This document shows positions 14,564 through 60,441 of a DNA stretch of 64,000 nucleotides, one piece after another. The first letter of the stretch is position 1, and every line of letters starts with the position of its first letter. A program made the position numbers and the translations under genes. The notes under the pieces are model-generated. The model was given only the letters and a program-made list of their open reading frames with translations. It was not told the origin of the DNA and did no database searches. The stretch comes from a virus (lineage: Duplodnaviria > Caudoviricetes): the IMG/VR virus record IMGVR_UViG_3300033121_001133, positions 73,380 through 137,379 of that record; one strand, given 5' to 3'.

Positions 14564-16420
14564 ATGGAATTATCCAGCCGAATTTTAAGCGATATCACTG
14601 TCTTTGCTAAGTATGCCCGCTACATTCCCGAGCTAAATAGGCGGGAGACGTGGGATGAGATTGTCTCTAGAAACATGGATATGCATATCAAGCGATATCC
14701 TCAGCTAGCTGATGAGATTAGGCAGGTTTACAGGTTTGTGTATGATAGGAAGGTTCTTCCTTCTATGAGGTCTATGCAATTTGCTGGTAAGCCAATTGAG
14801 ATTGCCCCTAGTAGGATTTTTAATTGTGCGTTTGCTCCAGTTGACCATATTAGGGCGTTTAGTGAAATCATGTTCCTACTATTGGGAGGAACAGGTGTAG
14901 GGTTTTCAGTACAAAAGCACCACATAGAAAATCTACCGGACATCCACAAGCCAACTCCAGGCAAGACTCGACGCTATCTAATCGGTGATAGTATTGAGGG
15001 CTGGGCTGATGCTGTTAAGGTGCTAATCAAGAGCTATTTCTCAGGTGGTCCTAAGATCAACTTCGACTTCTCGGACATTCGACCAAAAGGAGCTCGACTG
15101 ATCACCTCTGGAGGAAAGGCTCCTGGCCCTCAGCCTCTTAAGGAATGTTTAGTTAAGATCCAGGGTATTCTGGATACTAAGCAGGATGGGGATAAGTTAA
15201 AGTCAATTGAGGTGCATGATATCATCTGCCATATTGCTGATGCTGTATTAGCTGGGGGTATTCGTCGTGCCGCTTTGATCAGCCTATTCAGTGCCGATGA
15301 CGAGGAGATGATAGCGTGTAAGGCAGGAAATTGGTGGGAAACCAATCCTCAAAGGGGGCGAGCTAACAATTCAGCAGTACTCGTCAGACATAGGCTAACT
15401 AAGGGCTTTTTTATGAAGCTGTGGGAGCGAATTGAGCTGTCTGGTGCCGGGGAGCCTGGAATCTACCTAACCAACAATCAGCAATGGGGAACTAACCCCT
15501 GCGCGGAGATTGCTCTGAGGCCCTATCAATTCTGCAATCTATGTGAGGTCAATGTTAGTGATCTAATCTCTCAAGAGGACTTTGAGCAGCGAGTTAGAGC
15601 AGCAGCTTTTATTGGAACTTTGCAGGCAGGATATACCAATTTCCATTACCTGCGTGAGGTGTGGAAACACACTACAGAAAAGGATGCTCTAATCGGAGTG
15701 TCAATGACCGGTATTGGGTCTGGAGTGGTGCTGAATTACGATATGGAAGCGGCCGCTAAGGTCGTGGTGGAAGAGAACGCTCGCGTGGCTGATCTAATTG
15801 GTATCAATCGAGCAGCTAGAACTACTACAGTTAAGCCGGCCGGCACCACCTCCCTAACTTTAGGCACCTCCTCAGGAATCCACGCGTGGCACAACGATTA
15901 TTACGTTCGCAGGCTAAGACTGGGCAAGAATGAGGCAGTCTACACCTACTTGTCCATCTACCACCCTGAACTACTAGAAGATGACTTCTTCCGTCCGCAC
16001 GATACCGCAATCGCGTCAATTCCTCAAAAGGCTCCGGAAGGAGCGATTCTGAGATCGGAATCCCCTCTAGATCTCCTGGAACGAGTTAAAACTGTGTATG
16101 AGAAGTGGATCGTTCCAGGGCATGTCGACGGAAGCAATACTCACAACGTTTCAGCCACAATCAGCTTAAAGCCGGAGGATTGGGAGCCTGTAGGGCAGTG
16201 GATGTGGGAGAATCGGGATAAGTATAATGGTTTGTCGGTATTGCCGTACAGCGATTCGACCTATGTTCAGATGCCCTTTACCGACTGCACAAAGGAGGAG
16301 TACGAGAGGTTGAATGCTACTTTGAAAGAGGTAGATTTATCAAAGGTAGTTGAGATAGATGATAACACAGAGCTCAAGGAAAATCTAGCATGTGCTGGAT
16401 CGAGCTGCGAGATTAAATGA
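14564..16420 (+). CDS. nrdJ: Class II (adenosylcobalamin-dependent) ribonucleotide reductase, monomeric type
   Basis: FNCAF, GGTGVG, GGIRRAA, TNPCAEI thiyl cysteine, TVKPAGT, C-terminal CAGSSC; no small subunit gene nearby. Confidence 0.9.
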   Translation: MELSSRILSDITVFAKYARYIPELNRRETWDEIVSRNMDMHIKRYPQLADEIRQVYRFVYDRKVLPSMRSMQFAGKPIEIAPSRIFNCAFAPVDHIRAFSEIMFLLLGGTGVGFSVQKHHIENLPDIHKPTPGKTRRYLIGDSIEGWADAVKVLIKSYFSGGPKINFDFSDIRPKGARLITSGGKAPGPQPLKECLVKIQGILDTKQDGDKLKSIEVHDIICHIADAVLAGGIRRAALISLFSADDEEMIACKAGNWWETNPQRGRANNSAVLVRHRLTKGFFMKLWERIELSGAGEPGIYLTNNQQWGTNPCAEIALRPYQFCNLCEVNVSDLISQEDFEQRVRAAAFIGTLQAGYTNFHYLREVWKHTTEKDALIGVSMTGIGSGVVLNYDMEAAAKVVVEENARVADLIGINRAARTTTVKPAGTTSLTLGTSSGIHAWHNDYYVRRLRLGKNEAVYTYLSIYHPELLEDDFFRPHDTAIASIPQKAPEGAILRSESPLDLLERVKTVYEKWIVPGHVDGSNTHNVSATISLKPEDWEPVGQWMWENRDKYNGLSVLPYSDSTYVQMPFTDCTKEEYERLNATLKEVDLSKVVEIDDNTELKENLACAGSSCEIK

Positions 16421-26204: not shown

Positions 26205-28460
26205 ATGTCACATCAGCAGGAGAAGAACTACGTAATTGTACGTACAAGAGAGCAATTTGATCAACTATTTTCTCATATAGAGAGTAGCAACCTGATTGCG
26301 TATGACATCGAGACAGATAGTCTGAATCCTCGCAAAGGCTCTATCATTGGTTTCTCAGTCTCAGGTAACATAGGAGTAGGATACTACCTGCCAACCAGGG
26401 TATGGGACGCTGAGAAGCAGCAGTTAGTGGATCTGGAGGTAGAAGGCCACAGCTGCCACAACTTAGCACGTGCTTTGATTCGCAAGTTGAAGGGTAAGAA
26501 GCTGGTGATGCATAATGGATCGTTTGATATACGCTTCACTAAGGCCTATTATGGAATAGATCTGAGAGATGATCTGTATTGTGACACTCTCCTACTACGC
26601 CACACTCTCGTGGAGGATGGACCGTTTGGATTGAAGACCATAGCGATCGAGTTGCAGAACCATCTTGGATTGGATGCTGAAAAGGAAGCTAACGAGGAGC
26701 AGGTGCTGATGAAGCAGAGCATCAAAGCTAATGGAGGAAGCACCACAAAGGACAACTTCGAGCTATACAAAGCAGAGTTGGAGTTGCTAGGTAGATACGC
26801 TTGTGCAGATACCGATCTAACTCTGCGAATAATGACCCACTACTTGCCAATCTTAAAGGAGCAGGATCTGTGGGATTTCTTCTTTGAGCAGGAGGTGATG
26901 CCTCTGTATAAGACAGTTACCATCAAGATGGAGGAGATGGGAACTGAGTTGGACATGGATCTGATCAGAAAGACTAAGAACGATATCACATTAGATCTAA
27001 CCGCTCTTGAGTCGGAGATTGTGTCTGAGCTGCTATCGCTCAATCCGGTCAAACAGTGGGTGATCGAGAGAGCTTGTGAAGCATTCCCTCCAAAGAAGAG
27101 AGGTAGGTTCCGAGAGGAGCTACTCAACCTAAAGAACCCAGTCAATCCAACCGCGATTGATCAATTTTTGAATGGGGATCTTCCAGCTTCGGAACTAGAC
27201 CCTCAAGACAGCGTGGGAGTCAGCCTGTCTTTGTGGAGGATCAAGGAGGGTGGCTTCATCAATATCAGTTCAAGGAAGCAGCTGGCTGAGATTTGCTTTA
27301 AGTATCTTGGGATCAAGCCTCTGAGTCAGACTAGAAAAGGGTCTGATCAGTTTGATGATGACCTTATTGAAGAGCTAAGCAATACCCACAGCTGGGCAGC
27401 GAAGCTTCGCGACTTTAATAAGCTAACCAAGATCAGTAGTGCCTATATCGACAGGTTTCTGGAGGGAGCTGAGGAAGGTCGGTATTATTGGTATTTCAAG
27501 CAAGCCGGCACCACAAGTGGAAGATTTAGCTCGGACTGTCAACAGATCCCTCGATATCTGGAACCCGGGGAGGTTAGTGATTTAGTTAGGAGGTACAACA
27601 ATATCCTGCGTAGCTTCTTAAAGGCCGAGCAAGGTCGTAAGCTGATCATCTGTGACCAGTCCTCGCTGGAGCCAAGAGTATTCGCCTCGGTCAGCAACGA
27701 TCCCAATCTAATCAACGTATTCCGCGATAATGAGGATCTGTATAGCAGAGTAGCCATACAGGCGTTCAAGCTCAGGGGTATGAGTGCAAAGAAGGATGAC
27801 GACAACTACGTCAAGAAGCTTAGACCAGAGCTTAGGCAGCGAGCTAAAAGCATTGCTTTGGCTATACCATATGGGGCCGGAGCTTGGCAGATTGGACAAT
27901 CCCTAGGCATACCGCCGCAGAAAGCTCAGTTGCTGATTAACGACTACCTTGAAGGCTTTCCTGAGCTAGCTAGATGGATGACTGATACACACCTCAAAGT
28001 ACAGACAGTGGGCTTTGTCCGTAGTCGCGCTGGCCGCATAAGGCATCTTGACCGAGCAAAGGAGATATACAACACCTTTCAAGATCATCTACTAGATCCT
28101 CGTGCGTTTAAGATGATGAAGGATATGTGTAAGTCTGCGGAGCAGTTACAAAAGCTGATGCAGCTGCGAGCAGAATACAAAAACGCCCTGAACAACAGCA
28201 AGAACTTTCAGATCCAATCCCTAGCAGCTAGTATTATGAATAGGTCTGCAATAGTGATTCATCGAGATTTTGCAGAGATGGGGTTGGACGCATACATTAT
28301 GCTGCAAATCCACGACGAGTTTGTAATCAACTGCGCTGAGCAGGATGCTGAGAAGGTAGCAGCGATTGTTAAGCATCGAATGGAAACTACGGTAGAGATT
28401 CCTACAGGATTGGTAGCAGAGCCGAATGTGGCTGATAACTTCGGAGAGGGACACGCATAG
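26205..28460 (+). CDS. polA: Family A DNA polymerase with 3'-5' exonuclease
   Basis: Exo motifs YDIET, HNGSFD, YACAD; TTSGRFSS; motif A DQSSLEPR; motif B RQRAKSIALAIPYG; motif C QIHDE. Confidence 0.95.
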   Translation: MSHQQEKNYVIVRTREQFDQLFSHIESSNLIAYDIETDSLNPRKGSIIGFSVSGNIGVGYYLPTRVWDAEKQQLVDLEVEGHSCHNLARALIRKLKGKKLVMHNGSFDIRFTKAYYGIDLRDDLYCDTLLLRHTLVEDGPFGLKTIAIELQNHLGLDAEKEANEEQVLMKQSIKANGGSTTKDNFELYKAELELLGRYACADTDLTLRIMTHYLPILKEQDLWDFFFEQEVMPLYKTVTIKMEEMGTELDMDLIRKTKNDITLDLTALESEIVSELLSLNPVKQWVIERACEAFPPKKRGRFREELLNLKNPVNPTAIDQFLNGDLPASELDPQDSVGVSLSLWRIKEGGFINISSRKQLAEICFKYLGIKPLSQTRKGSDQFDDDLIEELSNTHSWAAKLRDFNKLTKISSAYIDRFLEGAEEGRYYWYFKQAGTTSGRFSSDCQQIPRYLEPGEVSDLVRRYNNILRSFLKAEQGRKLIICDQSSLEPRVFASVSNDPNLINVFRDNEDLYSRVAIQAFKLRGMSAKKDDDNYVKKLRPELRQRAKSIALAIPYGAGAWQIGQSLGIPPQKAQLLINDYLEGFPELARWMTDTHLKVQTVGFVRSRAGRIRHLDRAKEIYNTFQDHLLDPRAFKMMKDMCKSAEQLQKLMQLRAEYKNALNNSKNFQIQSLAASIMNRSAIVIHRDFAEMGLDAYIMLQIHDEFVINCAEQDAEKVAAIVKHRMETTVEIPTGLVAEPNVADNFGEGHA

Positions 28461-31710: not shown

Positions 31711-32427
31711 GTGTTAATGGTGATATATAAGACAACAAACACCCTAAATGGAAAGTTCTACGTGGGTAAGGATGTACGTAATAGACCCTCCTACTTAGGA
31801 AGTGGATCAGTACTTAAGAAAGCGATAGCCAAGTATGGTAAGAGCGTATTCAAGAAGGAGATCTTAGAGTACTGTAGCAGCTTAGAGCAGCTAAATGAGC
31901 GTGAGAAGTACTGGATTGAATGCACTAAAGCTCTTGAGTTGGGATATAACATTGCACATGGAGGGACTGGCGGAAATACCGGTGGAGGTGGGGGTGCACC
32001 AAAGGGTAGCATTCCATGGAATAAAGGGTTATGTTTACCTCCAAGCTGGAATAAGAACACTAAGGGTGTTATGAAAGCAAACAAGGGAACTTTTCAAGCC
32101 GGATCGAGTCACAAGCTCTATGGTAGAAAGCAGACTCAAGAGACAATCCAGAAAAGAAAGCGCACCCGTTTAGCTAACGGCAACGGCTATCGAGCGCCCG
32201 ACACCGGTCCATTTGCCCGAAAGCCCCTTCTAGCGGTTATGGTTGGTGGTTTGATCTTGGAGTTTTGCTCCCTGCGTGAGGCGTGTGCACACTTTCAGCT
32301 CAAATACAATACAGTGCGCCATGCAGTCGCTGTGAATGGCAAGGGCCAACGAGAGTTGATAACAAAAACCGCTAACGGTGCTATTAAGTTTATACCTAAA
32401 CATGAGCGAGCGGACAGTCTCCTATAG
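31711..32427 (+). CDS. Free-standing GIY-YIG homing endonuclease
   Basis: VIYKTTN..NGKFYVG, YLGSG, EKYWI, GYN; NUMOD-like PWNKG repeats; upstream TACTTATA at 31694-31701. Confidence 0.85.
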   Translation: MLMVIYKTTNTLNGKFYVGKDVRNRPSYLGSGSVLKKAIAKYGKSVFKKEILEYCSSLEQLNEREKYWIECTKALELGYNIAHGGTGGNTGGGGGAPKGSIPWNKGLCLPPSWNKNTKGVMKANKGTFQAGSSHKLYGRKQTQETIQKRKRTRLANGNGYRAPDTGPFARKPLLAVMVGGLILEFCSLREACAHFQLKYNTVRHAVAVNGKGQRELITKTANGAIKFIPKHERADSLL

Positions 32428-34147: not shown

Positions 34148-34549
34148 ATGGACCATAGTCAGCTTAAAAGATGCATAGCCGAGCTCACCAAGTACATGGG
34201 TGAGAAGGGGGTAATCATAGACCCCCTGCCTCGATTGGTACTGAAAGCTGACCCACAGCTGACCAATCAGATACTCTGTCCTACAGCTCATTACAGTCCC
34301 GTTAATCAGTCCATTACCTTGCATACTGCAGGAAGGCATCCGAAGGACATTCTTCGCAGCTATGCTCACGAGCTATATCACCACCACCAAAACTGCGAAG
34401 GTCGAATGCCTAAAGAAGCCTTAGAAGGCGCTGACAATCCAAAATATGCCCAGAGTAGTAAAACACTTCGTGATCTTGAGGCTGAGGCCTATATGAAGGG
34501 CAATCTGCTCTTTCGTGACTGGACGGACCTAAAAACAAAAGGAGCATGA
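34148..34549 (+). CDS. Putative zinc metallopeptidase (HExxH)
   Basis: DILRSYAHELYHHHQ...E.EAY; upstream TATTTATC at 34136-34143. Confidence 0.6.
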   Translation: MDHSQLKRCIAELTKYMGEKGVIIDPLPRLVLKADPQLTNQILCPTAHYSPVNQSITLHTAGRHPKDILRSYAHELYHHHQNCEGRMPKEALEGADNPKYAQSSKTLRDLEAEAYMKGNLLFRDWTDLKTKGA

Positions 34550-35163
34550 TAGCAGAGAAGCGTTGTAGTGGTTGTAAGGAAACCAAGCCAGCTGAGTTTT
34601 TTGCTAGGAACAGATCCTACAAGGATGGTTTGCATTACAACTGTCGAGAGTGCCACAAGATCTATTACAGGAAGACAAGGGACTATCAAATAGACTACGT
34701 GAAGAGGTGGGGAAGGGACAATAGAGAGAGGGTGCGGAGGCGAAATAAGGCTTATTGGCAAGAGAATAAGACACGCTTAATGCAGGAGAATCTAAAGTAC
34801 ACTAGTAGAAGGAGATCTGAGGATCACGTATTTGCTACCGTACATAATCTACGCAGTAGACTAAGCGCCACCCTTACACAAAAGCGCTTCTCGAAGGCTA
34901 GCACTTTCCCAACACTATTGGGATGTACTCCCACACAACTCAAAGAGCACCTGGAGGCTCAATTTGAGCCGTGGATGTCCTGGGACAATAGAGGTAAATA
35001 CAATGGTCTACCTCAGGTAGGATGGGATGTTGACCATATCATACCCCTATCCTCAGCTCAGTCAGTTAAAGAATTGGAACTGTTGGTACACTACACTAAC
35101 TTGAGACCTTTGTGCAGTTATGTTAACAGAGACTTGAAAAAAGCAAAACACCAGTGGAAATGA
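34546..35163 (+). CDS. HNH endonuclease (homing-type)
   Basis: N-terminal CxxC...CREC; WMSWDN, VDHIIPL, HYTNLRPL...N. Confidence 0.8.
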   Translation: MIAEKRCSGCKETKPAEFFARNRSYKDGLHYNCRECHKIYYRKTRDYQIDYVKRWGRDNRERVRRRNKAYWQENKTRLMQENLKYTSRRRSEDHVFATVHNLRSRLSATLTQKRFSKASTFPTLLGCTPTQLKEHLEAQFEPWMSWDNRGKYNGLPQVGWDVDHIIPLSSAQSVKELELLVHYTNLRPLCSYVNRDLKKAKHQWK

Positions 35164-37383: not shown

Positions 37384-37428
37384 CTGCTTTTGCTTATACA
37401 AGCTCTACCTATAGCAAAGGGAGTCATA

Positions 37429-38115
37429 ATGAAATGTGCTAATTCAGCTTGTGGTAATCAAACCAGGACGAGCATCGCTAGATACTGCTCTCGCTCCTGC
37501 CACATGATAGTTAGAAACGCAGAGGCTAGGACAGGGACGAATAAACCTTGCGCATGCTGCGGTACTCCAATCTATGTGGCGAAGTGGGAATCTCCAAGTA
37601 AAAGATACTGCAGTCGTGAGTGCGTAAGAATCTCCTCATTAGTAGATCGTGTAGAGGTGCTATGCTCATTAGAGGGTTGTTGTAATATAGTTCTAAGAAC
37701 TGAGAGGGAATCCCTTAAAACAGAAAAACACTACTGCTCAAGAACGTGTGCGAGTATAGCAGGTAGGGTTGCAGCTCAGGAGAGAGGTAAAAAGACTGGA
37801 ACTAAGCCTGAACTGGCCTTTGCGCAGTGGTGTGAGAAAAATGACATCCAATATAAAGCTCAGTTTGCTGTTGCATGGCAGAGGGGGTGGAAAAAGTGGT
37901 ATGATTTTTATTTACCTGACTACCATTTGCTAGTTGAAATTGATGGTGTATATTGGCACGGAAAGGGTTTATCTGACAGCGAGCTTAATGAGCAGCAGAA
38001 TAATACTAGGAGAAATGATATCGAAAAGAATAAATTAGCTTGCGAACGTGGATTTAACCTATTACGTATTTGGGAAGATGAAATAGCTAGCTTCGATTTA
38101 CGAAAACTAATATGA
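37429..38115 (+). CDS. Vsr/DUF559-like (EDxHD) endonuclease with Cys-rich repeats
   Basis: Three YCSR.C repeats; TKPE, YDFY, EIDGVYWH, LLRIWE; upstream TGCTTATA at 37391-37398. Confidence 0.8.
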   Translation: MKCANSACGNQTRTSIARYCSRSCHMIVRNAEARTGTNKPCACCGTPIYVAKWESPSKRYCSRECVRISSLVDRVEVLCSLEGCCNIVLRTERESLKTEKHYCSRTCASIAGRVAAQERGKKTGTKPELAFAQWCEKNDIQYKAQFAVAWQRGWKKWYDFYLPDYHLLVEIDGVYWHGKGLSDSELNEQQNNTRRNDIEKNKLACERGFNLLRIWEDEIASFDLRKLI

Positions 38116-42441: not shown

Positions 42442-43395
42442 ATGGCAAAAGACAGAGTACTAATTACTGGCGGAAGCGGCTTCTTGGGAAGGAACTTAGC
42501 AATTAAACTCAAGGAGCAGTATGATGTATACTTGGGAGCTCGAAACAACAAGCAGAATTTCAATGCTCAGGGACTAACTGGGGTCAGTGTACTTCCTATG
42601 GATGTATCCAGTATGGAATCTACACGCGATGCTATTAGGTCTATCAGGCCTAATGTTATCATCCATGCTGCAGCTACTAAGTTCGTCGATCTATCAGAGA
42701 AGTTTCCACTGGAGACAATCGATGTCAACGTTGTTGGCTCTGAGAACGTAGCACGTGCCGCAATGGATTATGGCGTTGATGTTGTGATTGGCATTTCAAC
42801 TGATAAGGCATGCCCTCCAATTCGGAACATCTACGGACTATCTAAGGCAACCATGGAGAGGATGTTCTGCTTGCTTGATGGTAAGACCAGGACCAAGTTT
42901 GCTTGTGTGCGTTATGGAAATGTAGCATGGTCTACAGGCTCAGTTCTCCCAATCTGGAAGAAGATGCAGCAAGAGGGTAAGGTAATTGGCACTACGGGGC
43001 CAGATATGCGTCGATTCTTCTTCACCGTAGATGATGCAGTACAGCTAGTAGAGACTGCAATCAACAATATCAACACAATCAGGGGTCAGATACTGTCACG
43101 CAATATGAAAGCTGCGTTGATTAGGGATTTGCTTAATGTCTGGGTAGAGGAGTTTGGTGGTGAATGGGCTTTGATCGAAGGACGTCCAGGTGAGCGGAAT
43201 GATGAGTACCTGGTGGGGGAGACTGAGCTGGAGTACTGTCGTGTACTAGACTTCAAAGGAGTGCAGCACTTCTTGATTAGTCCTAACACCAAGGTAGATA
43301 AACCATTTCCTTACGTGTTCACCTCTAGGGAGGCTACTAAGCTAACTAGGCAAGAGATGGTTGCTATCATAAAAGCACAACCGGACACTCTATGA
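42442..43395 (+). CDS. NDP-sugar 4,6-dehydratase (CapD/PseB-like SDR)
   Basis: ITGGSGFLG, HAAA.K.V, ISTDKA..P..YGLSK, RYGNV..S.GSV, M.RFF. Confidence 0.88.
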   Translation: MAKDRVLITGGSGFLGRNLAIKLKEQYDVYLGARNNKQNFNAQGLTGVSVLPMDVSSMESTRDAIRSIRPNVIIHAAATKFVDLSEKFPLETIDVNVVGSENVARAAMDYGVDVVIGISTDKACPPIRNIYGLSKATMERMFCLLDGKTRTKFACVRYGNVAWSTGSVLPIWKKMQQEGKVIGTTGPDMRRFFFTVDDAVQLVETAINNINTIRGQILSRNMKAALIRDLLNVWVEEFGGEWALIEGRPGERNDEYLVGETELEYCRVLDFKGVQHFLISPNTKVDKPFPYVFTSREATKLTRQEMVAIIKAQPDTL

Positions 43396-44090
43396 CATTC
43401 AGGCACGCTCTAATACTAGCTGCTGGGCGAGGGGAAAGGATGATGCCTCTAACTGCCAACAAACCAAAGGCTTTGGTGACGTTAGGCAACAAACCCCTAA
43501 TTCAGTATACCATCGATACCCTTCGCAAGCAGGGAGTAGAGCGGATCTATGTCACTTATGGGTGGCAGGGTAAGATGCTGGTTGACTATCTACACAATAA
43601 GGTAGAGGGTTTGATCAACACTACCAATCAAGATAATGCTGGGTTCCTTTCAACTAGTGTGCTGCAGTATGTGGATGCCCCGATGCTGGTTTGTCCTTGT
43701 GATTTGACATTCGACATAGATCTCGCAGCCCTAAAGTTGGAGCATACCCTAGCTGTTAAGCGTCCAATTTACCTTATACCAGTACAAGCTTCTAAGAACG
43801 CTGACTTCATTCACACCGGTGACTTTCTCGCAGTCACCGATATCACTAGGGAACGGAAATCCGAGTTATGTGCCAGTGGTATACAGATCATCAACCCCTT
43901 GATGCTAAACCAGTGGATTCACCCTCCCTCCAACTTCTATGGTGTGTGGACCAACTTAATTAAGCTAGGAGGTTTGGGTGTCACTACTACCACACCTTCT
44001 AACTGGAGTTCGTATGACAGTGAGGAGGATGTATTTAGATGGCACTACCCCACTGATCCCCAGGATGTGTGGCCTTCAACACCTCAGTGA
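43392..44090 (+). CDS. Sugar-phosphate nucleotidyltransferase
   Basis: ILAAGRGERMMPLT..KPKAL...NKPLI. Confidence 0.85.
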   Translation: MTFRHALILAAGRGERMMPLTANKPKALVTLGNKPLIQYTIDTLRKQGVERIYVTYGWQGKMLVDYLHNKVEGLINTTNQDNAGFLSTSVLQYVDAPMLVCPCDLTFDIDLAALKLEHTLAVKRPIYLIPVQASKNADFIHTGDFLAVTDITRERKSELCASGIQIINPLMLNQWIHPPSNFYGVWTNLIKLGGLGVTTTTPSNWSSYDSEEDVFRWHYPTDPQDVWPSTPQ

Positions 44091-44917
44091 TGGAAAAGCT
44101 ATCGATCCGCGATCAACTGTTCCATCACGCTTATTCCACCAGCAATTGGTTTAAGCCAATAGAGTTTGAGTGGGATTTCGTTAATCTACACAACGACTTC
44201 GTGTTCCTAACAGATCAGAATGTCTTTCAAGTAAGCGATCCGGAACTCAAGGATTACAGGAAGTACGCTTGGTTAGTTGAGTCTCCGGTGATCACACCCA
44301 AGTCTTATCAATTTGTAGCACAGAATCCTACCCTATTTGATAAGATCTTTACTCACAGTGAGGAGCTGTTGAAGCATGCTCACGCGCACCTTGTACCAAT
44401 AGGGGGCTGCCACCTCGATCAAGCTGATATTAGCCTAGACCACACCAAGACCAAGCTGGTCTCAATGATGTACTCTAACAAGAATTCAGTAGATGGACAC
44501 AATCTACGTCACCAAATAGCCAACACACCAGGCATCAATCAACTAGTAGATCTGATGGGTAGTGGGGTGGATGGTAGGCATGTTAAGAAGATTGAGTCTT
44601 GCAGAGACTATGCCTTTTCGGTAGTGATAGAGAACTGCAAGCAAGGATACTACTTCACGGAGAAGATTGTGGATTGCTTCCTAACAGGTACAATTCCAAT
44701 TTACTGGGGCACTTCCTACATTGGTCAGTTCTTCAATGCACGAGGATTTCTAACCTTCAGTACAGCAGACCAGCTTATTAAGGCACTGGGAGATCGCGAG
44801 CGGTTAGCTGAGTTCTATAATGACCATCACGACGATGTTATTGAGAACTTTCGTTTAGCTCATCAATATAAGGTGGGTGATGACTACCTCTACAAACACT
44901 TCAGACAGATACTATGA
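44090..44917 (+). CDS. GT10 (alpha-1,3-fucosyltransferase-like) glycosyltransferase
   Basis: YAFSVVIEN....YFTEKIVDCF..GTIPIYWG motif. Confidence 0.8.
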   Translation: MEKLSIRDQLFHHAYSTSNWFKPIEFEWDFVNLHNDFVFLTDQNVFQVSDPELKDYRKYAWLVESPVITPKSYQFVAQNPTLFDKIFTHSEELLKHAHAHLVPIGGCHLDQADISLDHTKTKLVSMMYSNKNSVDGHNLRHQIANTPGINQLVDLMGSGVDGRHVKKIESCRDYAFSVVIENCKQGYYFTEKIVDCFLTGTIPIYWGTSYIGQFFNARGFLTFSTADQLIKALGDRERLAEFYNDHHDDVIENFRLAHQYKVGDDYLYKHFRQIL

Positions 44918-45666
44918 AGATTGCTCTGTGCATATCAGGTCAGCCTAGAGGATTAGATCACAACATTCCTCGCCTACTAGAGGGGTTAGTTTGGCCAAGC
45001 AAGATTAAGGACATCTTCATCCACACCTGGTTTGATCAGAGCTTGGTAGGTGTGCCTTTCTCTTCCGCTCAACCCAACCAAACAGGTAAGGTTGGAGTGT
45101 GGGCCGCCGACACCATTGAGTTACTGAAGAGCCTCAATCCGATTCGATTGGAGGTGGAGTATCCTAAGTTATTTGAGGAGTTCAGTCACCTACCCAATCT
45201 CCCATCTGCTATACAGACGCAACTTGCCTCTAACACATATTCTGTGTATAGGGCCAACAGACTGAAATGTGAGCATGAGCATGTTACTGGCACTAAGTAC
45301 GACTTAGTAATACGAGCTCGTATAGATTGTGCGTACAGTGAGCCCTATGATATCACTAAGTACTTGGATCCTAAGTGGGATACTGAGGATGTGCTACACG
45401 TACCCTACAAATTCCAGCACATGAGGATGGATGATTCCTATCCATTGCTAGGAGGCGGTACATATAGCTCGATGTCAGACACGTTTGCTTACGGTCGATC
45501 TGAGGTTGTCGATAAGTTCTGTTCAGTCTACCCTCAATTTGAGAATATACATCACCACATTGTACCCTATCAGTATGGTGAGTGCTTCTTTGGCTACCAG
45601 ACTAGGTACCGCCACAAGATCAGGATCAGCATGCAACCCATAGAGTACCAACTAGTGCGAGGATGA
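44914..45666 (+). CDS. Putative glycosyltransferase-like protein (KIALCISGQPR family)
   Basis: KIALCISGQPR, FIHTW, YDLVIRARID, SD.FAYG; such ORFs are usually found in glycan loci. Confidence 0.55.
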   Translation: MKIALCISGQPRGLDHNIPRLLEGLVWPSKIKDIFIHTWFDQSLVGVPFSSAQPNQTGKVGVWAADTIELLKSLNPIRLEVEYPKLFEEFSHLPNLPSAIQTQLASNTYSVYRANRLKCEHEHVTGTKYDLVIRARIDCAYSEPYDITKYLDPKWDTEDVLHVPYKFQHMRMDDSYPLLGGGTYSSMSDTFAYGRSEVVDKFCSVYPQFENIHHHIVPYQYGECFFGYQTRYRHKIRISMQPIEYQLVRG

Positions 45667-46403
45667 ACATACTATTTCCTATAGCAGGACAGGGATCTAG
45701 ATTCAAAGCTGGGGGTTACCAGGTACCCAAGCCGCTGGTACTGGTTAATGGTACTACCCTACTAGAGCACTCCATAAAGACTTTGGGATTGGATGGACAT
45801 TACATCTTTGTAACGTTACGATATCCCAATGCTCGGTTCAACAATACAATCAGGCAGATCATAGACCGTAGTTGCCCTTCCTATAGCATCGTGGAGCTTG
45901 AGGCCCCAACTCAAGGGGCAGCTCAAACTTGCTTAGCTGCTTCACATCTGATAGATAACGCTACTCCATTAGTAGTCACTAACTGCGATCAGTATCTTAG
46001 ATGGGACCCCAACCAACTAATCAAGGAGATTCAGCTACACGATCCCGATGCATGTGTCAGTTTATACGACCACCAGGATATTGAGCTAGATAAGCCCAGT
46101 AAGTATGCTTTTGTGGAGCTAGATGACAAAGGCTATGCAGTTCGGTTTTGTGAAAAGTACGCTATCTCACCCAATGCGTTAAATGGAATCCACTATTGGA
46201 AGTCTGGGGAATTATTCGTAAGTTACGTAGCGCTGATGATGGCCAATAATATCAGAGTCAATGGAGAGTACTATATTTCACCTTCCCTTAATCTCCTAAT
46301 CAATGCTGGAGGACGAATCACTACTTTCAAGATGGAACCCGGCCAATACTTCTCGTTAGGAAGTCCACAAGAAATAAACAACAACAAACAACACATAAAC
46401 TAG
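45663..46403 (+). CDS. Nucleotidyltransferase-like capsule-biosynthesis protein
   Basis: FPIAGQGSRF...GY..PKPL, T.GAA.T, NCDQ, GIHYW, RVNGEYYISP. Confidence 0.8.
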   Translation: MNILFPIAGQGSRFKAGGYQVPKPLVLVNGTTLLEHSIKTLGLDGHYIFVTLRYPNARFNNTIRQIIDRSCPSYSIVELEAPTQGAAQTCLAASHLIDNATPLVVTNCDQYLRWDPNQLIKEIQLHDPDACVSLYDHQDIELDKPSKYAFVELDDKGYAVRFCEKYAISPNALNGIHYWKSGELFVSYVALMMANNIRVNGEYYISPSLNLLINAGGRITTFKMEPGQYFSLGSPQEINNNKQHIN

Positions 46404-46411
46404 AGTTCAAT

Positions 46412-47023
46412 ATGGAGAGTGCTAAGGATAAGTTACAGCGGGTTTGCTATGACATCGTGCAAGGTAAACCTGTGGTAGTTGTAGATGATTACGATAGGGA
46501 ATATGAGGGAGATATTGTACTCTCGGCCGAGAAGGCCACAGCTGAGAATCTGATCTTCTGCATGCGTCACGCAAAGGGTCTAATGTGTATACCCTTGCTG
46601 CAAGATACTTGCGATCGCTTGGAGATCCCAATGATGCACTCCAATAAGAACGACAAGTATGGAACCCCCTTTGCGTCCTCTATTGATGCAATTGAAGGAG
46701 CTACTACAGGAATGTCTGTGCACGACCGCCTCAAGACCATCTCCATCGTGGTAAATGATAAGTCTCAACCTAATGAGCTAGCCCAACCGGGTCATATGTT
46801 CCCATTGCGAGCACGACCAGGACTTTTGAAAGAGCGAAGAGGCCATACCGAAGCTTCAATCGAGTTGATGAAGGCCAGCAACCTCAAACCAATAGCAGTA
46901 ATCGTAGAGATTATGAATGAGGATGGCACTATGATCAAAGGTGAAAAATTGGAGCAATTTGCGAAGATCTACAATCTGAATATGATATCAGTAGAGGAGA
47001 TCCATGACGCAGTTTATCAATAG
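46412..47023 (+). CDS. ribB: 3,4-dihydroxy-2-butanone-4-phosphate synthase
   Basis: VVDDYDREYEGD, GLMC, TTGMSVHDR, PGHMFPL, RRGHTEAS, EIMNEDGTM. Confidence 0.93.
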   Translation: MESAKDKLQRVCYDIVQGKPVVVVDDYDREYEGDIVLSAEKATAENLIFCMRHAKGLMCIPLLQDTCDRLEIPMMHSNKNDKYGTPFASSIDAIEGATTGMSVHDRLKTISIVVNDKSQPNELAQPGHMFPLRARPGLLKERRGHTEASIELMKASNLKPIAVIVEIMNEDGTMIKGEKLEQFAKIYNLNMISVEEIHDAVYQ

Positions 47024-47963
47024 AGCATACAATACTCTTAAGATCAGGCCTGACAATCCGGCTGTGATTACTAAGAGAAGCTGCGATAGTAGGCTTAGGG
47101 ATGAGATTGCCTACTATCGCAGCCTCCCTCCTCAGCAAGCAATCTACTTTCCTAGGATAGTGGAAGGTGGTCAGGGGGAGAGTGTAGAGTTTGAGTTGAC
47201 AATGGAATACTATGCCTATGACAATCTAGGCAACCTAATGATCAACCAACAACCTAACCCCGATCTCTGGGCAAAGGTGTTCAACTTCATAGCATCATTC
47301 TCCCACCAGGATGAACAGAGGCCTCCTGATCCTGCTAGCTGTGGGAAGATGTTCATTCAGAAGACAGAGATCGAGTACCATAAATTGATCAACAACTTCG
47401 AGTTTTTCCGTCAGTTTGATCGGACTGAATCAGTGATCACTCTCAATCAGGAACCTCTCTACAGTTTTGACATGATTTGGCCTACGATTCGGCGGTTCCT
47501 ACGGGACGAATGTCTGAGCGAGCCTCTTCGTATCATACACGGAGACCTATGCTTCAGCAACATACTGTATGGTCAGAATCCAATCAGCGGAGATGTAATA
47601 TTGAAGTTCATCGATCCGCGCGGGTCTTTTGGTGATCAGACCATATATGGGGATCCTTATTACGATCTCGCAAAGCTACTACACTCTTGTGACGGAGGTT
47701 ATGAGTACTTCATTACAGATAACTTTCAACTTACCCAACGAGGTAGTGACTTCTGGTTGGTTTATGGCAACAACAACGGAGCTCAGATTGCTGATATCTT
47801 CACCCAGACCCTTGACCTATCCTACAACACCAAGAAGATTTTAGCACTGCAGGGACTAATCTTCATCGGTATGTGCGCAAGGCACTACGATTCACTAGAA
47901 AGGCAGAAGGCTATGTTTCTGACTGGACTACGCATTCTAAACACAGTAGCTTCTACCTTATGA
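47004..47963 (+). CDS. APH/choline-kinase-fold sugar kinase (capsule-biosynthesis type)
   Basis: RAYN, EIAYY, MEYY, IHGDLCFSNIL, IDPRG.FG, GDPYYDLAKL.HS. Confidence 0.8.
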   Translation: MTQFINRAYNTLKIRPDNPAVITKRSCDSRLRDEIAYYRSLPPQQAIYFPRIVEGGQGESVEFELTMEYYAYDNLGNLMINQQPNPDLWAKVFNFIASFSHQDEQRPPDPASCGKMFIQKTEIEYHKLINNFEFFRQFDRTESVITLNQEPLYSFDMIWPTIRRFLRDECLSEPLRIIHGDLCFSNILYGQNPISGDVILKFIDPRGSFGDQTIYGDPYYDLAKLLHSCDGGYEYFITDNFQLTQRGSDFWLVYGNNNGAQIADIFTQTLDLSYNTKKILALQGLIFIGMCARHYDSLERQKAMFLTGLRILNTVASTL

Positions 47964-48307
47964 GATTCTGCTTCGATCTAGACAATACCCTGTGTGAGCT
48001 TAAGCAGGAAGGTCAAAGCTACAGTCAGCTAGACCCAAAGCCAGGTGCTGTTAGGTATTTGCAGAAACTTGCACAAAAAGGTCACTACATCATTATCTAC
48101 ACAGCCCGTCACATGGCAACCTGTGGTGGTAACCTAGGTCGAATCACAGCTCTTCAAGCACCAGCTACCATTGCCTGGCTAGCCAAACACCAAATACCGT
48201 ATGATGAATTGCTATTTGGAAAACCGCTGGCAGATTACTATATTGACGATAAAGCAATCGCCTTCACTGACTTCTCTACTCTTGAACAACACCTACCTCT
48301 AACATGA
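47960..48307 (+). CDS. HAD-family phosphatase (EcbF/BcbF capsule-biosynthesis type)
   Basis: FDLDNTLC, IYTAR, WL.KH.IPYDEL.FGKP, YIDDKA. Confidence 0.85.
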   Translation: MRFCFDLDNTLCELKQEGQSYSQLDPKPGAVRYLQKLAQKGHYIIIYTARHMATCGGNLGRITALQAPATIAWLAKHQIPYDELLFGKPLADYYIDDKAIAFTDFSTLEQHLPLT

Positions 48308-49110
48308 GACCATTCTTCATCGACACCGCCAATACTAAATACATCGAGACTTTGTGGGAGCAACTGCAATCCCATGTAGATCCTCAAAATGTTGTTGGAG
48401 TTACAACCAACCCCAATGCATTCTTGAAGACCTCGGATCTCACTCTACCACAGTGGTTTAGTCGAACTAAGGAACTATGCAAGCTGGTAACCCAGATTAG
48501 AGGAGATGATCGAGGTGTAGTATACATACAGGGTCCTAGCTCTAAGATGACGCCACAAGGTACTTTGGATTACGCTAAGAGGGTGAGGGAGCTTGGTGAT
48601 GGTCAGACCAAAGTAGGTCTGAAGATACCTCCATACAAGGACATACTGAGGATTGTACCCCAGCTATCGACAATTGTTGATGTCAATGTCACTGGTGTTG
48701 CTGACGCAGGAACAGCCCTGAGGTGTGCATCGTATGGGGTGCGCTATGTTAGCGTTATACCAGGTAGAATGGAGGAAGCTGGAATTGATGCACCACGTCA
48801 AATTGACTATATTCGGAGCGCCAATCTATTTGGTACTGATATTATTGCTGGTAGCATGAGGACCATCGCAGGTCTGAAGTGGACCATTGAATATGGTACA
48901 GTTCCCACTATTGGAGAGAGGGTGTGGAACTTACTGCTGGAGTCTCCAGCAGCTTTGGAGATGATTGCATCTTTGGAAGTTAAGTCAGACTTTCCGGCAT
49001 CAGAGTTTTGTCCTGTAATCGATAGCCGTAGTTTTAAGCTATCACATGCGTTCTTCCAGCAGATGGATCAATGTGGACAACAAGCAGCTGAATCACTATG
49101 GACACTGTAG
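48304..49110 (+). CDS. Divergent transaldolase/fructose-6-phosphate aldolase family protein
   Basis: FIDTAN, GVTTNP, LKIP (Schiff-base Lys), VNVT, S..PGRM, IAGSMR. Confidence 0.8.
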
Positions 49111-50189
49111 TAGTTACCGGTTGTGGGGGTTTGATTGGTCTGGAAGCCGCTGAGTTCTTTCTTTCTAAGGGATTGAGGGTTGTGGGGATCGACAATAACC
49201 TCAGAGAGTATTTTTTTGGTCAAGATGGTTCAGTCGAGTCTAACTTAGACAAGCTCAGACAGCTGCCCAACTTCCACTTACATTATGTGGACATTAGGGA
49301 TAGAGCCAATTTAGAGTCCATATTCTCAGTAAGGGCTGGAGACATCAAGGCAGTCATTCATACCGCGGCTCAACCATCGCATGATTGGGCAGTCAAGGAG
49401 CCTCTAACGGACTTCAACGTTAACGCTACCGGAACACTTAACCTACTAGAGTTAACTCGCAAGTACGCTCCTAAAGCTACCTTTATCTTCACTTCAACTA
49501 ACAAGGTGTATGGGGACAGCCCAAATCAACTACCCCTATTAGAGTTAGAGTCTAGATACGAGATTGACTACAACCACCCATATTTCTGTGGTATACCTGA
49601 GACACATACTATTGACCAAAGCAAGCACAGTCTATTTGGCTGCTCAAAGCTCGCAGCGGACATCTACGTACAAGAGTATGGTAGGTACTTTGGGATGAAC
49701 ACTGTAGTATTCCGTGGGGGATGTCTAACAGGATCAAAGCATCGTGGAGCTGAACTTCATGGCTTTCTAAATTACCTAGTCAAGTGTGCCATCGAAGGAA
49801 AGACCTACACCATCCATGGCTACAAAGGCAAGCAGGTAAGGGATAACATACACTCCAGCGACCTGGTTGCAGCATTTTATGAGGTGTACCAAAGCCCTAG
49901 ATCTGGAGAAGTCTACAACATCGGCGGAGGACGTGATTCTAATTGCTCTGTGTTGGAGGCTATCGAAATGATCGAACAGACCGTGGGAACTACGATGAAG
50001 ATTGTGTATAGTGATACTAACCGGAGCGGGGATCATCAATGGTGGATTAGTGATACAGCTAAGTTCCAACGACACTACCCTAATTGGAGTTGCAAATACA
50101 GCATCAAGGGCATTATAGAGGAGTTAGTAGCAAACTACAAGCATGAGCAACTACCAGTCTCAGTTTCAGCAGGACAGGATTCTGAATGA
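49098..50189 (+). CDS. NAD-dependent NDP-sugar epimerase (CDP-paratose 2-epimerase-like)
   Basis: [49 protein letters not shown]. Confidence 0.88.
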
Positions 50190-59364: not shown

Positions 59365-60441
59365 ATGAATAACCTTGATCAGCAATACAAAGCTCTACTC
59401 CAAGATATCTTAGATGATGGAGTAGACAAGCAAGGTAGGAATGGGATCACCAAGTCGATCTTCGGTAGGCAGATTCGTCACAGGATGAGTGATGGGTTCC
59501 CACTCCTGACTACCAAGAAGATGGCGTGGAAGTCTATTGTAGTTGAGCTGTTGTGGTTCTTGCAGGGAAGAACAGACTTAAAGTACTTAATTGATAACGG
59601 ATGTAACATCTGGAATGGTGATAGCTACAGGGCCTATGTGGCCAGGTGGCATAAGAACTTTGAGGACTGTGGAGTAACTCCAACCGAAGATCAAAAGCCA
59701 ATGTCAATGGAAGAGTTTGTTGCGTTCATACGCACTAATTCAGCCGATATGGTGGATAAACTAGGCCTAGGCGATCTTGGACCGATCTACGGTAAGCAGT
59801 GGCGCAGATGGCAGGGCTACACTAAGCAGGGTTGGTCCTTATGGTTTGATCAGATGCAGCAAGTGCTGACCCAGCTAAAGACCGACCCCGATTCAAGACG
59901 TATGATGGTGTCTGCTTGGAATGTAGGTGAACTACGCCAAATGGTGCTTCCTCCATGTCACTACGGGTTCCAGGTTTATACGAGAGAGTTGAGCGGCGAG
60001 GAGAGGAGTGCAATTTACTCTAAGAGGTGTGGGTTTGATGAGGCGAATCATGGAAACATCGGCGGCATCTTTGATGCTGCAGATATTCCCAAACGAGCAA
60101 TTTCGCTTATGTGGAACCAACGCTCGGTTGATGTTCCTCTAGGTCTACCGTTCAACATTGCCTCTTATGGCCTACTGTTGATGCTCCTTGGCAAGGAGGT
60201 TAACATGGTACCTGATCAATTGATTGGTAACTTGGGAGATTGTCACATCTATAACAATCAGATTGATGGTATTAAGGAGCAGTTGACTAGAGATCCTTAT
60301 GATCTGCCAACCGTAGATCTGGATTTCAAGTACTCCTACTTCGATGGCTACTTGGTTGAGTGGGATAAGATTCCGATTGACAAAGTTAAGCTAGTCGGCT
60401 ACCAGAGTCATCCCACCATTAAGATGCCGCTGTCCAACTAG
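59365..60441 (+). CDS. thyA: Thymidylate synthase
   Basis: FPLLTTKK, ELLWFL, LGPIYGKQWR, SRRM.VSAWN, LPPCH, QRSVD..LGLPFNIASY, GDCHIY. Confidence 0.96.
   Translation: MNNLDQQYKALLQDILDDGVDKQGRNGITKSIFGRQIRHRMSDGFPLLTTKKMAWKSIVVELLWFLQGRTDLKYLIDNGCNIWNGDSYRAYVARWHKNFEDCGVTPTEDQKPMSMEEFVAFIRTNSADMVDKLGLGDLGPIYGKQWRRWQGYTKQGWSLWFDQMQQVLTQLKTDPDSRRMMVSAWNVGELRQMVLPPCHYGFQVYTRELSGEERSAIYSKRCGFDEANHGNIGGIFDAADIPKRAISLMWNQRSVDVPLGLPFNIASYGLLLMLLGKEVNMVPDQLIGNLGDCHIYNNQIDGIKEQLTRDPYDLPTVDLDFKYSYFDGYLVEWDKIPIDKVKLVGYQSHPTIKMPLSN

Follow-up and report, generated by a model that had tools for sequence, protein, structure and literature searches.

We propose that five adjacent genes of an uncultured tailed virus, together with a sixth gene that borders them, probably form one dedicated pathway that makes a nucleoside diphosphate (NDP)-activated sugar derived from 3,4-dihydroxy-2-butanone-4-phosphate (DHBP) and supplies it to a phage glycosylation island. 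The genes lie in the last 64 kb of the IMG/VR record IMGVR_UViG_3300033121_001133, which is linear, 137 kb long, and estimated to be 81% complete; this whole stretch of 64,000 nucleotides is referred to below as the window. They encode a sugar-1-phosphate-type nucleotidyltransferase (NTase), RibB (DHBP synthase), an APH-fold kinase, a small HAD phosphatase, and a divergent Schiff-base enzyme of the transaldolase/fructose-6-phosphate aldolase (TAL/FSA) fold, hereafter the aldolase (Table 1). The sixth gene encodes a DUF7796-type protein. An earlier reading of this DNA, made from the sequence only, had placed the five open reading frames (ORFs) at 45663-49110, and all of them are present there on the plus strand with the domains that it had assigned. 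The plus strand carries every gene of the window. The five genes are translationally coupled: start and stop codons overlap as ATGA at 45663, 47960, and 48304, and longer overlaps measure 20 nt at 47004 and 13 nt at 49098.

The same genes are found together in many other viruses. We assembled a set of 53 loci anchored on the aldolase, 47 of them from a scan of IMG/VR for aldolase motifs and the others from other collections, in which the aldolases are 35-60% identical. The kinase is present in 53/53 loci, RibB in all except one locus that is truncated upstream, and the HAD and the NTase were detected in nearly all; in one locus where tblastn missed the HAD, a different small HAD directly follows the aldolase. 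The order is conserved as [NTase]-RibB-kinase-[NTase]-HAD-aldolase. Viral loci anchored on RibB give the same picture, with the kinase and the aldolase in 27/27; because the scan used motifs specific to module RibBs, it does not sample viral ribB without bias. A less biased tblastn search of 50,697 GenBank phage records found module-type RibB in Synechococcus phage S-SKS1 only; the remaining matches seem to be bacterial DNA deposited under phage names. S-SKS1 has this block with its gene order unchanged, and the annotated DHBP synthase of the phage is a 475-aa NTase-RibB fusion. Such NTase-RibB fusions occur in about 20 loci, S-SKS1 included. Additionally, the kinase and the NTase are fused into a protein of 570 aa in locus L006, the NTase and the HAD in L053/L056, and the HAD and the aldolase in P0265. 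The linkage of RibB, aldolase, and kinase is evidently not due to chance. A survey of ribB neighborhoods, which the sequence-only reading had suggested, was positive: the aldolase is linked wherever the flank suffices, four different fusions join the genes, and other rib genes are absent. These results strongly support its view that RibB is here part of a conserved sugar-activation module and not a riboflavin auxiliary gene.

RibB itself is predicted to be a DHBP synthase with intact catalytic motifs. It scores 228.6 bits against PF00926 (cut-off 26.4) and 199.8 bits against the TIGR00506 equivalog (cut-off 177.45), and it aligns over its full length and free of gaps with the solved DHBP synthases 1tks (C. 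albicans) and 1g57 (E. coli) at E ~1e-48. All catalytic and metal-binding motifs are kept (DREYEGD, the Cys, TTGMS, PGH, RRGHTE, and the Glu in VEIM) and are invariant among four module RibBs, which also have common motifs of their own, for example, IPMM[PHQ]SN. To our knowledge, RibB is restricted to riboflavin synthesis in textbook accounts. No match to ribA, ribD, ribH, or ribE (PF00925, PF01872, PF00885, PF00677) was found in the window or in the 137-kb record, so that the lack of other riboflavin genes noted earlier for the window extends to the record, at 81% completeness. The module RibB thus belongs to the same family as the riboflavin-pathway enzyme, with motifs intact and an equivalog score over the cut-off, but it is without the ribA/ribD/ribH/ribE partners, is often fused to a sugar NTase, and sits in a glycan cluster.

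The aldolase shares its fold and most of its catalytic residues with the TAL/FSA enzymes (PF00923; TalB, TacTal, FSA, cyanophage TalC), namely the TIM barrel, the Schiff-base Lys, the catalytic Asp, Asn, and Thr, and both phosphate-binding Arg (R155, R186). Its closest solved structure is the Thermoplasma transaldolase (TacTal; E 3e-10), and the top Foldseek matches of its AlphaFold2 (AF2) model (pLDDT 94) are all transaldolases (TM up to 0.79). In the alignment with TacTal, K107, the Schiff-base Lys on strand 4, corresponds to K86, Q76 to E60, and I152, within S-V-I-P-G-R, to F132. Hence, the Glu of classical transaldolases (TalB E96/TacTal E60) and the Phe of S-P-F-V-G-R, which is Tyr in FSA, are replaced by Gln and Ile. 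This bears out the earlier observation of a Schiff-base Lys accompanied by these two substitutions, and it does so for the whole family, as Q76 and I152 are found in 53/53 members (32 clusters at 90% identity). In an alignment of 18 members reaching down to 37% identity, Q76, S-x-I-P-G-R-M, Asn128, and Ser150 are invariant; the invariant residues are D7, N36, TTNPN, Q76, K107, N128, T130, S150, I152, R155, and R186. The two substituted positions presumably lie near the C3-C4 bond, as in transaldolase structures.

The donor pocket also argues against a simple assignment to FSA. In TacTal, the residues aligned with N128 and S150 are Asn108 and Ser130. We take Asn154 and Ser176 of TalB to bind the C1 hydroxyl of the dihydroxyacetone (DHA) unit, with Leu107 and Ala129 as their counterparts in FSA, and we take the FSA signature to be Gln, a catalytic Tyr (Y131), and a donor pocket made hydrophobic by Leu/Ala. 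Measured against these residues, Asn128/Ser150 appears to be the transaldolase state of the pocket and not the FSA state. The Gln is present in the aldolase, but the Tyr position is Ile, the pocket holds Asn128/Ser150, and the score against the FSA profile TIGR00875 is 45 bits (cut-off 246). Unlike TAL and FSA, the aldolase has a C-terminal extension of ~50 residues and is always next to RibB. The family is small, with 358 cluster representatives at E<=1e-3 in a profile search of 1.84 billion representatives that reports no taxonomy, and a motif-based scan of one genome per species for 185,579 species, which divergent members would escape, found no bacterial or archaeal member. By these searches the aldolase represents a distinct family confined to sequences that are viral or come from unassigned metagenomic material. 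In S-SKS1, a canonical talC that retains both Glu and Phe exists besides the module, and the module aldolase is therefore not the pentose-phosphate transaldolase of this phage.

The remaining three enzymes have recognizable relatives. The best solved relatives of the NTase are the NDP-sugar pyrophosphorylase 4evw (E 3e-8) and mannose-1-phosphate guanylyltransferases; the S-SKS1 NTase-RibB fusion has an N-terminal half that is 41% identical to the window NTase, whose match to HddC is weak (E 3e-7). The kinase has the catalytic-loop motif HGDLCFSN and an IDPRG motif and is assigned to phrog_21938 (E 9e-64); a PDB sequence search gave no match. The HAD has motif I (FDLDNT), with PDB 1xpj as its best solved relative (E 9e-19), and scores 78.5 bits against TIGR01689 (EcbF-BcbF), under the 162-bit cut-off. 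Its gene most likely starts at ATG 47960, giving 115 aa, and not at GTG 47873, because homologues have 115-135 aa, the alignment starts at residue 30, and this ATG overlaps the kinase stop. Small HADs of the 1xpj type are labeled "phosphoheptose isomerase" in RefSeq in both S-SKS1 (NC_020851; L002:9100-9456) and Serratia phage X20 (L057:5049-5414), which looks like a propagated misannotation.

In the UDP-arabinofuranose route of phages, ribulose 5-phosphate (Ru5P) is isomerized to arabinofuranose 5-phosphate, the APH-fold domain of AfhE produces the 1,5-bisphosphate, the HAD enzyme AfhF takes off the 5-phosphate, and the NTase domain of AfhE then yields UDP-arabinose; the pathway is present in RB69, DLP3, and HY126-type phages, and 1xpj is the reported top match for the DLP3 gp81 and RB69 gp51 phosphatases too (PMC13326640). 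With tblastn, the kinase of the window matches 320 phage records, among them those of RB69-like, Thanatos, and X20 phages. The genome of Serratia phage X20 has an arabinose-5-phosphate isomerase, a 564-aa NTase-kinase (gp042), and a 121-aa HAD (gp041) side by side, and from this synteny we infer that gp042 is an AfhE orthologue. The window kinase is 28% identical to gp042 (E 8e-14), in line with homology to the C-terminal domain of AfhE, and the window HAD 36% identical to gp041 (E 1e-20). We therefore regard the back half of the module as homologous to a characterized activation route of the AfhE/AfhF type. Both systems are phage encoded, start from Ru5P in our proposal, include kinase-NTase fusions, and share a logic in which a sugar-omega-phosphate is converted to the 1,omega-bisphosphate, the sugar-1-phosphate, and finally the NDP-sugar.

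The front halves differ. The UDP-arabinofuranose pathway begins with a SIS isomerase, whereas the module has RibB and the TAL-fold enzyme. No SIS or SIS_2 isomerase was matched in the 137-kb record, and no module locus has a homologue of the X20 arabinose-5-phosphate isomerase; thus, the front end would be neither arabinose-type nor heptose-type. Given a front end of RibB and a TAL-fold enzyme with no SIS protein, the sugar of the module cannot be arabinose, and we rejected that reading on the lack of the isomerase homologue. The systems differ further in that the module NTase has a gene to itself or is joined to RibB or the HAD, in that the domain order of the L006 kinase-NTase fusion is reversed relative to AfhE, and in their contexts: a glycan island with multiple glycosyltransferases and with methyltransferases for the module, a 5-hydroxycytosine DNA-modification cluster for the arabinofuranose genes. 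RibB is not known to play a role in heptose synthesis. The NDP-heptose pathway (GmhA, HddA/HldE, GmhB, HddC/HldE) resembles the module in its logic of isomerizing or building a skeleton before the action of kinase, phosphatase, and NTase, but it uses a GHMP or PfkB kinase and GmhA where the module has an APH-fold kinase, a 1xpj/EcbF-BcbF-type HAD, and no GmhA/SIS. A heptose-type reading, as the RefSeq label "phosphoheptose isomerase" in S-SKS1 would suggest, was rejected as well, since that gene encodes the small HAD and the 137-kb record of the window has no SIS domain. The sequence-only reading had instead pointed to capsule loci that add fructose as a place where such kinase/HAD/NTase trios occur. 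This was not supported where checked, since the fructose-bearing capsule locus of C. jejuni HS1 has a fructose transferase and no such trio; among known systems, the one to which the trio is related by homology is the UDP-arabinofuranose pathway of phages.

The DUF7796-type family directly flanks the module with one to three copies in 47/53 loci. PF25072 (DUF7796) is matched by 16/22 family members (best E 6e-10). The best Foldseek matches of the AF2 model (pLDDT 95) are GT6 transferases of the GT-A fold (4ayl, GTA/GTB, a3GalT; E 3e-6, probability 1.0, TM 0.45-0.54), and the DUF7796 profile has no sequence match to any solved glycosyltransferase in a PDB search. Invariant Y129-D130 and R136-x-D138 could be the equivalent of a DxD motif. 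We consider this protein to be the sixth conserved member and a candidate dedicated glycosyltransferase for the sugar of the module.

In the pathway that we envisage, RibB would turn Ru5P into DHBP and formate, as its intact motifs suggest. DHBP corresponds to glyceraldehyde 3-phosphate in which a methyl replaces the aldehyde hydrogen, in the L configuration. It cannot form a ring or offer the anomeric hydroxyl on which the kinase family acts, because the 4-OH of this four-carbon methyl ketone is phosphorylated. As the aldolase is the only enzyme of the set that forms C-C bonds, it would have to extend DHBP, and the product would be a ring-forming sugar phosphate. The likeliest route would transfer a DHA unit from fructose 6-phosphate or sedoheptulose 7-phosphate onto the ketone of DHBP to give 4-C-methyl-hex-2-ulose 6-phosphate. 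The APH-fold kinase would then phosphorylate the anomeric hydroxyl, the small HAD would remove the distal phosphate, the NTase would make the NDP-sugar, and one or more DUF7796-type proteins would transfer it. The steps from kinase to NTase are modeled on the phage UDP-arabinofuranose route because the kinase and the phosphatase are homologous.

That the product is 4-C-methyl-hex-2-ulose 6-phosphate was the proposal of the sequence-only reading and is still the most economical one, although we consider this exact product less likely than not. The chemistry fits the predicted enzyme: the donor pocket resembles that of transaldolases, the cleavage Asp is kept together with the two phosphate-binding Arg, and the only changes presumably lie near the C3-C4 bond. 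The furanose form of this product is the ring of arabinofuranose 5-phosphate with an extra hydroxymethyl and an extra methyl, and the kinase, HAD, and NTase would convert it into an NDP-ketofuranose. It is possible, if doubtful, that the final sugar is such a C-methyl-branched ketohexose, with a methyl that stems from the RibB product and is fixed by aldol addition onto a ketone without a C-methyltransferase using S-adenosylmethionine, and with activation as an NDP-hexulofuranose. A number of points weigh against the proposed pathway. For TAL/FSA enzymes, a ketone is an unusual acceptor in aldol addition and a thermodynamically less favorable one, and an NDP-ketofuranose requires phosphorylation of the anomeric C2 of a ketose, a reaction not known from this kinase family; no ketose-to-aldose isomerase is conserved in the module. 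Furthermore, the NTase is only weakly similar to the N-terminal domain of AfhE (E 0.057), and genes absent from the record, at 81% completeness, could lie in its missing part.

DHBP could also be the origin of the sugar with a different coupling by the aldolase. With a C2 donor of the glycolaldehyde type, the product would be a 3-C-methyl-pentofuranose 5-phosphate, a close mimic of arabinofuranose 5-phosphate; with DHBP itself as the Schiff-base nucleophile, it would be a 3-C-branched 1-deoxy-ketose. The kinase and the HAD are homologous to enzymes that act on arabinofuranose 5-phosphate and its 1,5-bisphosphate, so that an aldopentofuranose would demand the least change of these enzymes. FSA accepts glycolaldehyde and hydroxyacetone as donors, and at position 76 the aldolase has the Gln of FSA. 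The invariant Asn128/Ser150, on the other hand, is what we take to be the transaldolase rather than the FSA donor pocket, free glycolaldehyde is not a common metabolite, and DHBP bound as the donor would fill the acceptor site with its own phosphorylated C4 arm. We regard a coupling of this kind as rather unlikely.

The two skeleton-building enzymes might also feed separate products, the aldolase making an ordinary sugar phosphate for activation and DHBP serving as another building block, for instance a four-carbon non-sugar substituent of the glycan. The aldolase does retain both phosphate-binding Arg and every residue that aldol chemistry of the ordinary C3-C4 kind requires, and no fusion joins RibB directly to it. 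We nevertheless think this improbable: the conserved set holds no enzyme able to attach DHBP elsewhere, the linkage is obligate across loci whose aldolases are down to 35% identical, the product of an ordinary transaldolase would still call for an isomerase, for which no gene is present, and the invariant Q76/I152 signature suggests a non-standard substrate. It is very improbable that the chemistry of RibB has changed, so that it releases the branched-chain intermediate of its rearrangement, or uses another ketose phosphate, and provides a different precursor. The module RibBs share motifs of their own (IPMM[PHQ]SN) and occur in phages only in this context, but the full-length alignment to DHBP synthases, the retention of all catalytic motifs, and the score above the TIGR00506 cut-off are those of an ordinary DHBP synthase. 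Finally, RibB and the aldolase could be two unrelated auxiliary metabolic genes that happen to lie in a glycan island, one for host riboflavin and one for the pentose-phosphate pathway. Cyanophage talC is indeed a well-known auxiliary gene. A "tal" gene of S-SKS1 is listed as auxiliary (PMC4053976), but it is not the gene of the module aldolase. An explanation of this kind is barely credible to us, as the survey already contradicts it with 100% co-occurrence, a fixed order, and four kinds of fusion, and as the record has no other rib genes and S-SKS1 keeps its separate canonical talC. A DHBP-derived sugar built and activated by a single pathway is therefore the reading that we prefer.

Table 1. 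Genes of the module and its immediate neighbors in the window, with the profiles or models on which each assignment is based.
Feature	Position	Strand	Basis and remarks
GT10-like (fucosyltransferase-like) glycosyltransferase	44069..44917	+	PF00852 E 1.1e-7; family in 23/53 module loci, a frequent but not constant neighbor
DUF7796-type protein, 250 aa	44914..45666	+	PF25072; AF2/Foldseek
Sugar-1-phosphate-type nucleotidyltransferase (NTase)	45663..46403	+	PF00483 E 2.4e-10; PF12804 E 2.4e-8
RibB, 3,4-dihydroxy-2-butanone-4-phosphate (DHBP) synthase	46412..47023	+	PF00926; TIGR00506
APH-fold kinase	47004..47963	+	PF01636 E 1.6e-7
Small HAD phosphatase, 1xpj/EcbF-BcbF/AfhF type	47960..48307 (ORF open from GTG 47873)	+	TIGR01689
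Divergent TAL/FSA-fold Schiff-base enzyme (aldolase)	48304..49110	+	PF00923 44.8 bits (cut-off 27)
SDR, epimerase/4,6-dehydratase type	49098..50189	+	PF01370 E 1.3e-39

The module lies in a glycosylation island at ~35.9-53.4 kb of the window that contains a GT4, several GT2, a GT10-like glycosyltransferase, two SDRs, and two FkbM methyltransferases, in agreement with the glycosyltransferase surroundings described earlier for the five genes. SDR families are found in ~40 of the 53 module loci; they come from two subfamilies and vary in position. The SDR that follows the aldolase in the window may thus be a variable accessory that tailors the NDP-sugar of the module or another one. Directly upstream, at 42442-44090, there is a second activation pair consisting of a PseB-like 4,6-dehydratase and a MurU-like nucleotidyltransferase; the island would therefore make two different NDP-sugars or more. 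A TylC3-like sugar C-methyltransferase (Methyltransf_23 plus Methyltransf_14) is encoded in 18/53 module loci, often directly after the aldolase (for example, L024:4758-5864 and L004:8837-9958), and is absent from the window. In L006, a 252.8-kb NCBI contig (GCA_902730705.1), a 396-aa RuBisCO-large-like protein (L006:3137-4327; PF00016, 128 bits) is encoded ~1.1 kb upstream of the module, and a methyltransferase gene and a small ORF separate its gene from RibB. This protein could be a further sugar-phosphate enzyme tied to the pathway in some viruses.

Homing-endonuclease-like genes (GIY-YIG, HNH, Vsr-like) lie around and inside the island, at 31711-32427, 34546-35163, and 37390-38115 of the window, and in locus L075 a homing-endonuclease-like DUF723 ORF (L075:2482-3264) is inserted between the NTase and the aldolase. 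A ThyA-family gene at 59365-60441 of the window encodes 358 aa, in which an insertion breaks up the Pfam/NCBIfam match into two or three parts, and keeps PCH and the dUMP-type Asn (PFNIASY). Its product is predicted to be a canonical thymidylate synthase or a dUMP hydroxymethylase, and nothing in it suggests a cytosine-modifying enzyme. With the dUMP-type Asn kept in the sole ThyA-family gene, there is no support for DNA hypermodification as what the module serves, though such a role is still conceivable.

Elsewhere in the window, the family A DNA polymerase (26205-28460) is closest to that of Flavobacterium phage vB_FspM_immuto (45% identity) and the NrdJ-like ribonucleotide reductase (14564-16420) to that of Microcystis phage Mel-JY01 (66% identity). 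Because these two nearest relatives point in different directions, it would be unsafe to take the virus of the window for a cyanophage. The occurrence of the module in phage lineages unrelated to S-SKS1 implies that it has spread horizontally.

Our literature search found no paper that combines DHBP, transaldolase, nucleotidyltransferase, and glycosyltransferase, and the module is not described in the papers found on S-SKS1 or on ribB with cyanophage. The half of the pathway that builds the skeleton, RibB and the aldolase, is thus without a precedent that we could find, whereas the half that activates the sugar has a relative in the UDP-arabinose route of phages.

These findings indicate that RibB is an obligate and often fused part of a nucleotide-sugar pathway in many uncultured aquatic viruses and in one cultured cyanophage. 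If these ribB and tal genes are counted in viral ecology as auxiliary genes for riboflavin synthesis and the pentose-phosphate pathway, that is probably a misreading, which the findings would correct. If the proposed pathway is true, DHBP and an aldolase provide a new way to build sugar skeletons, and the aldolase is a new TAL/FSA subfamily with an altered active site, of interest in biocatalysis for sugars with tertiary alcohols. Should the product prove to be a C-methyl ketohexose, the module would offer three firsts: a role for RibB outside flavin synthesis, a natural TAL-fold enzyme that uses a ketone acceptor, and a pathway to a nucleotide-activated neutral ketofuranose. The pathway, if true, also points to an unusual sugar on a glycan that these phages make.

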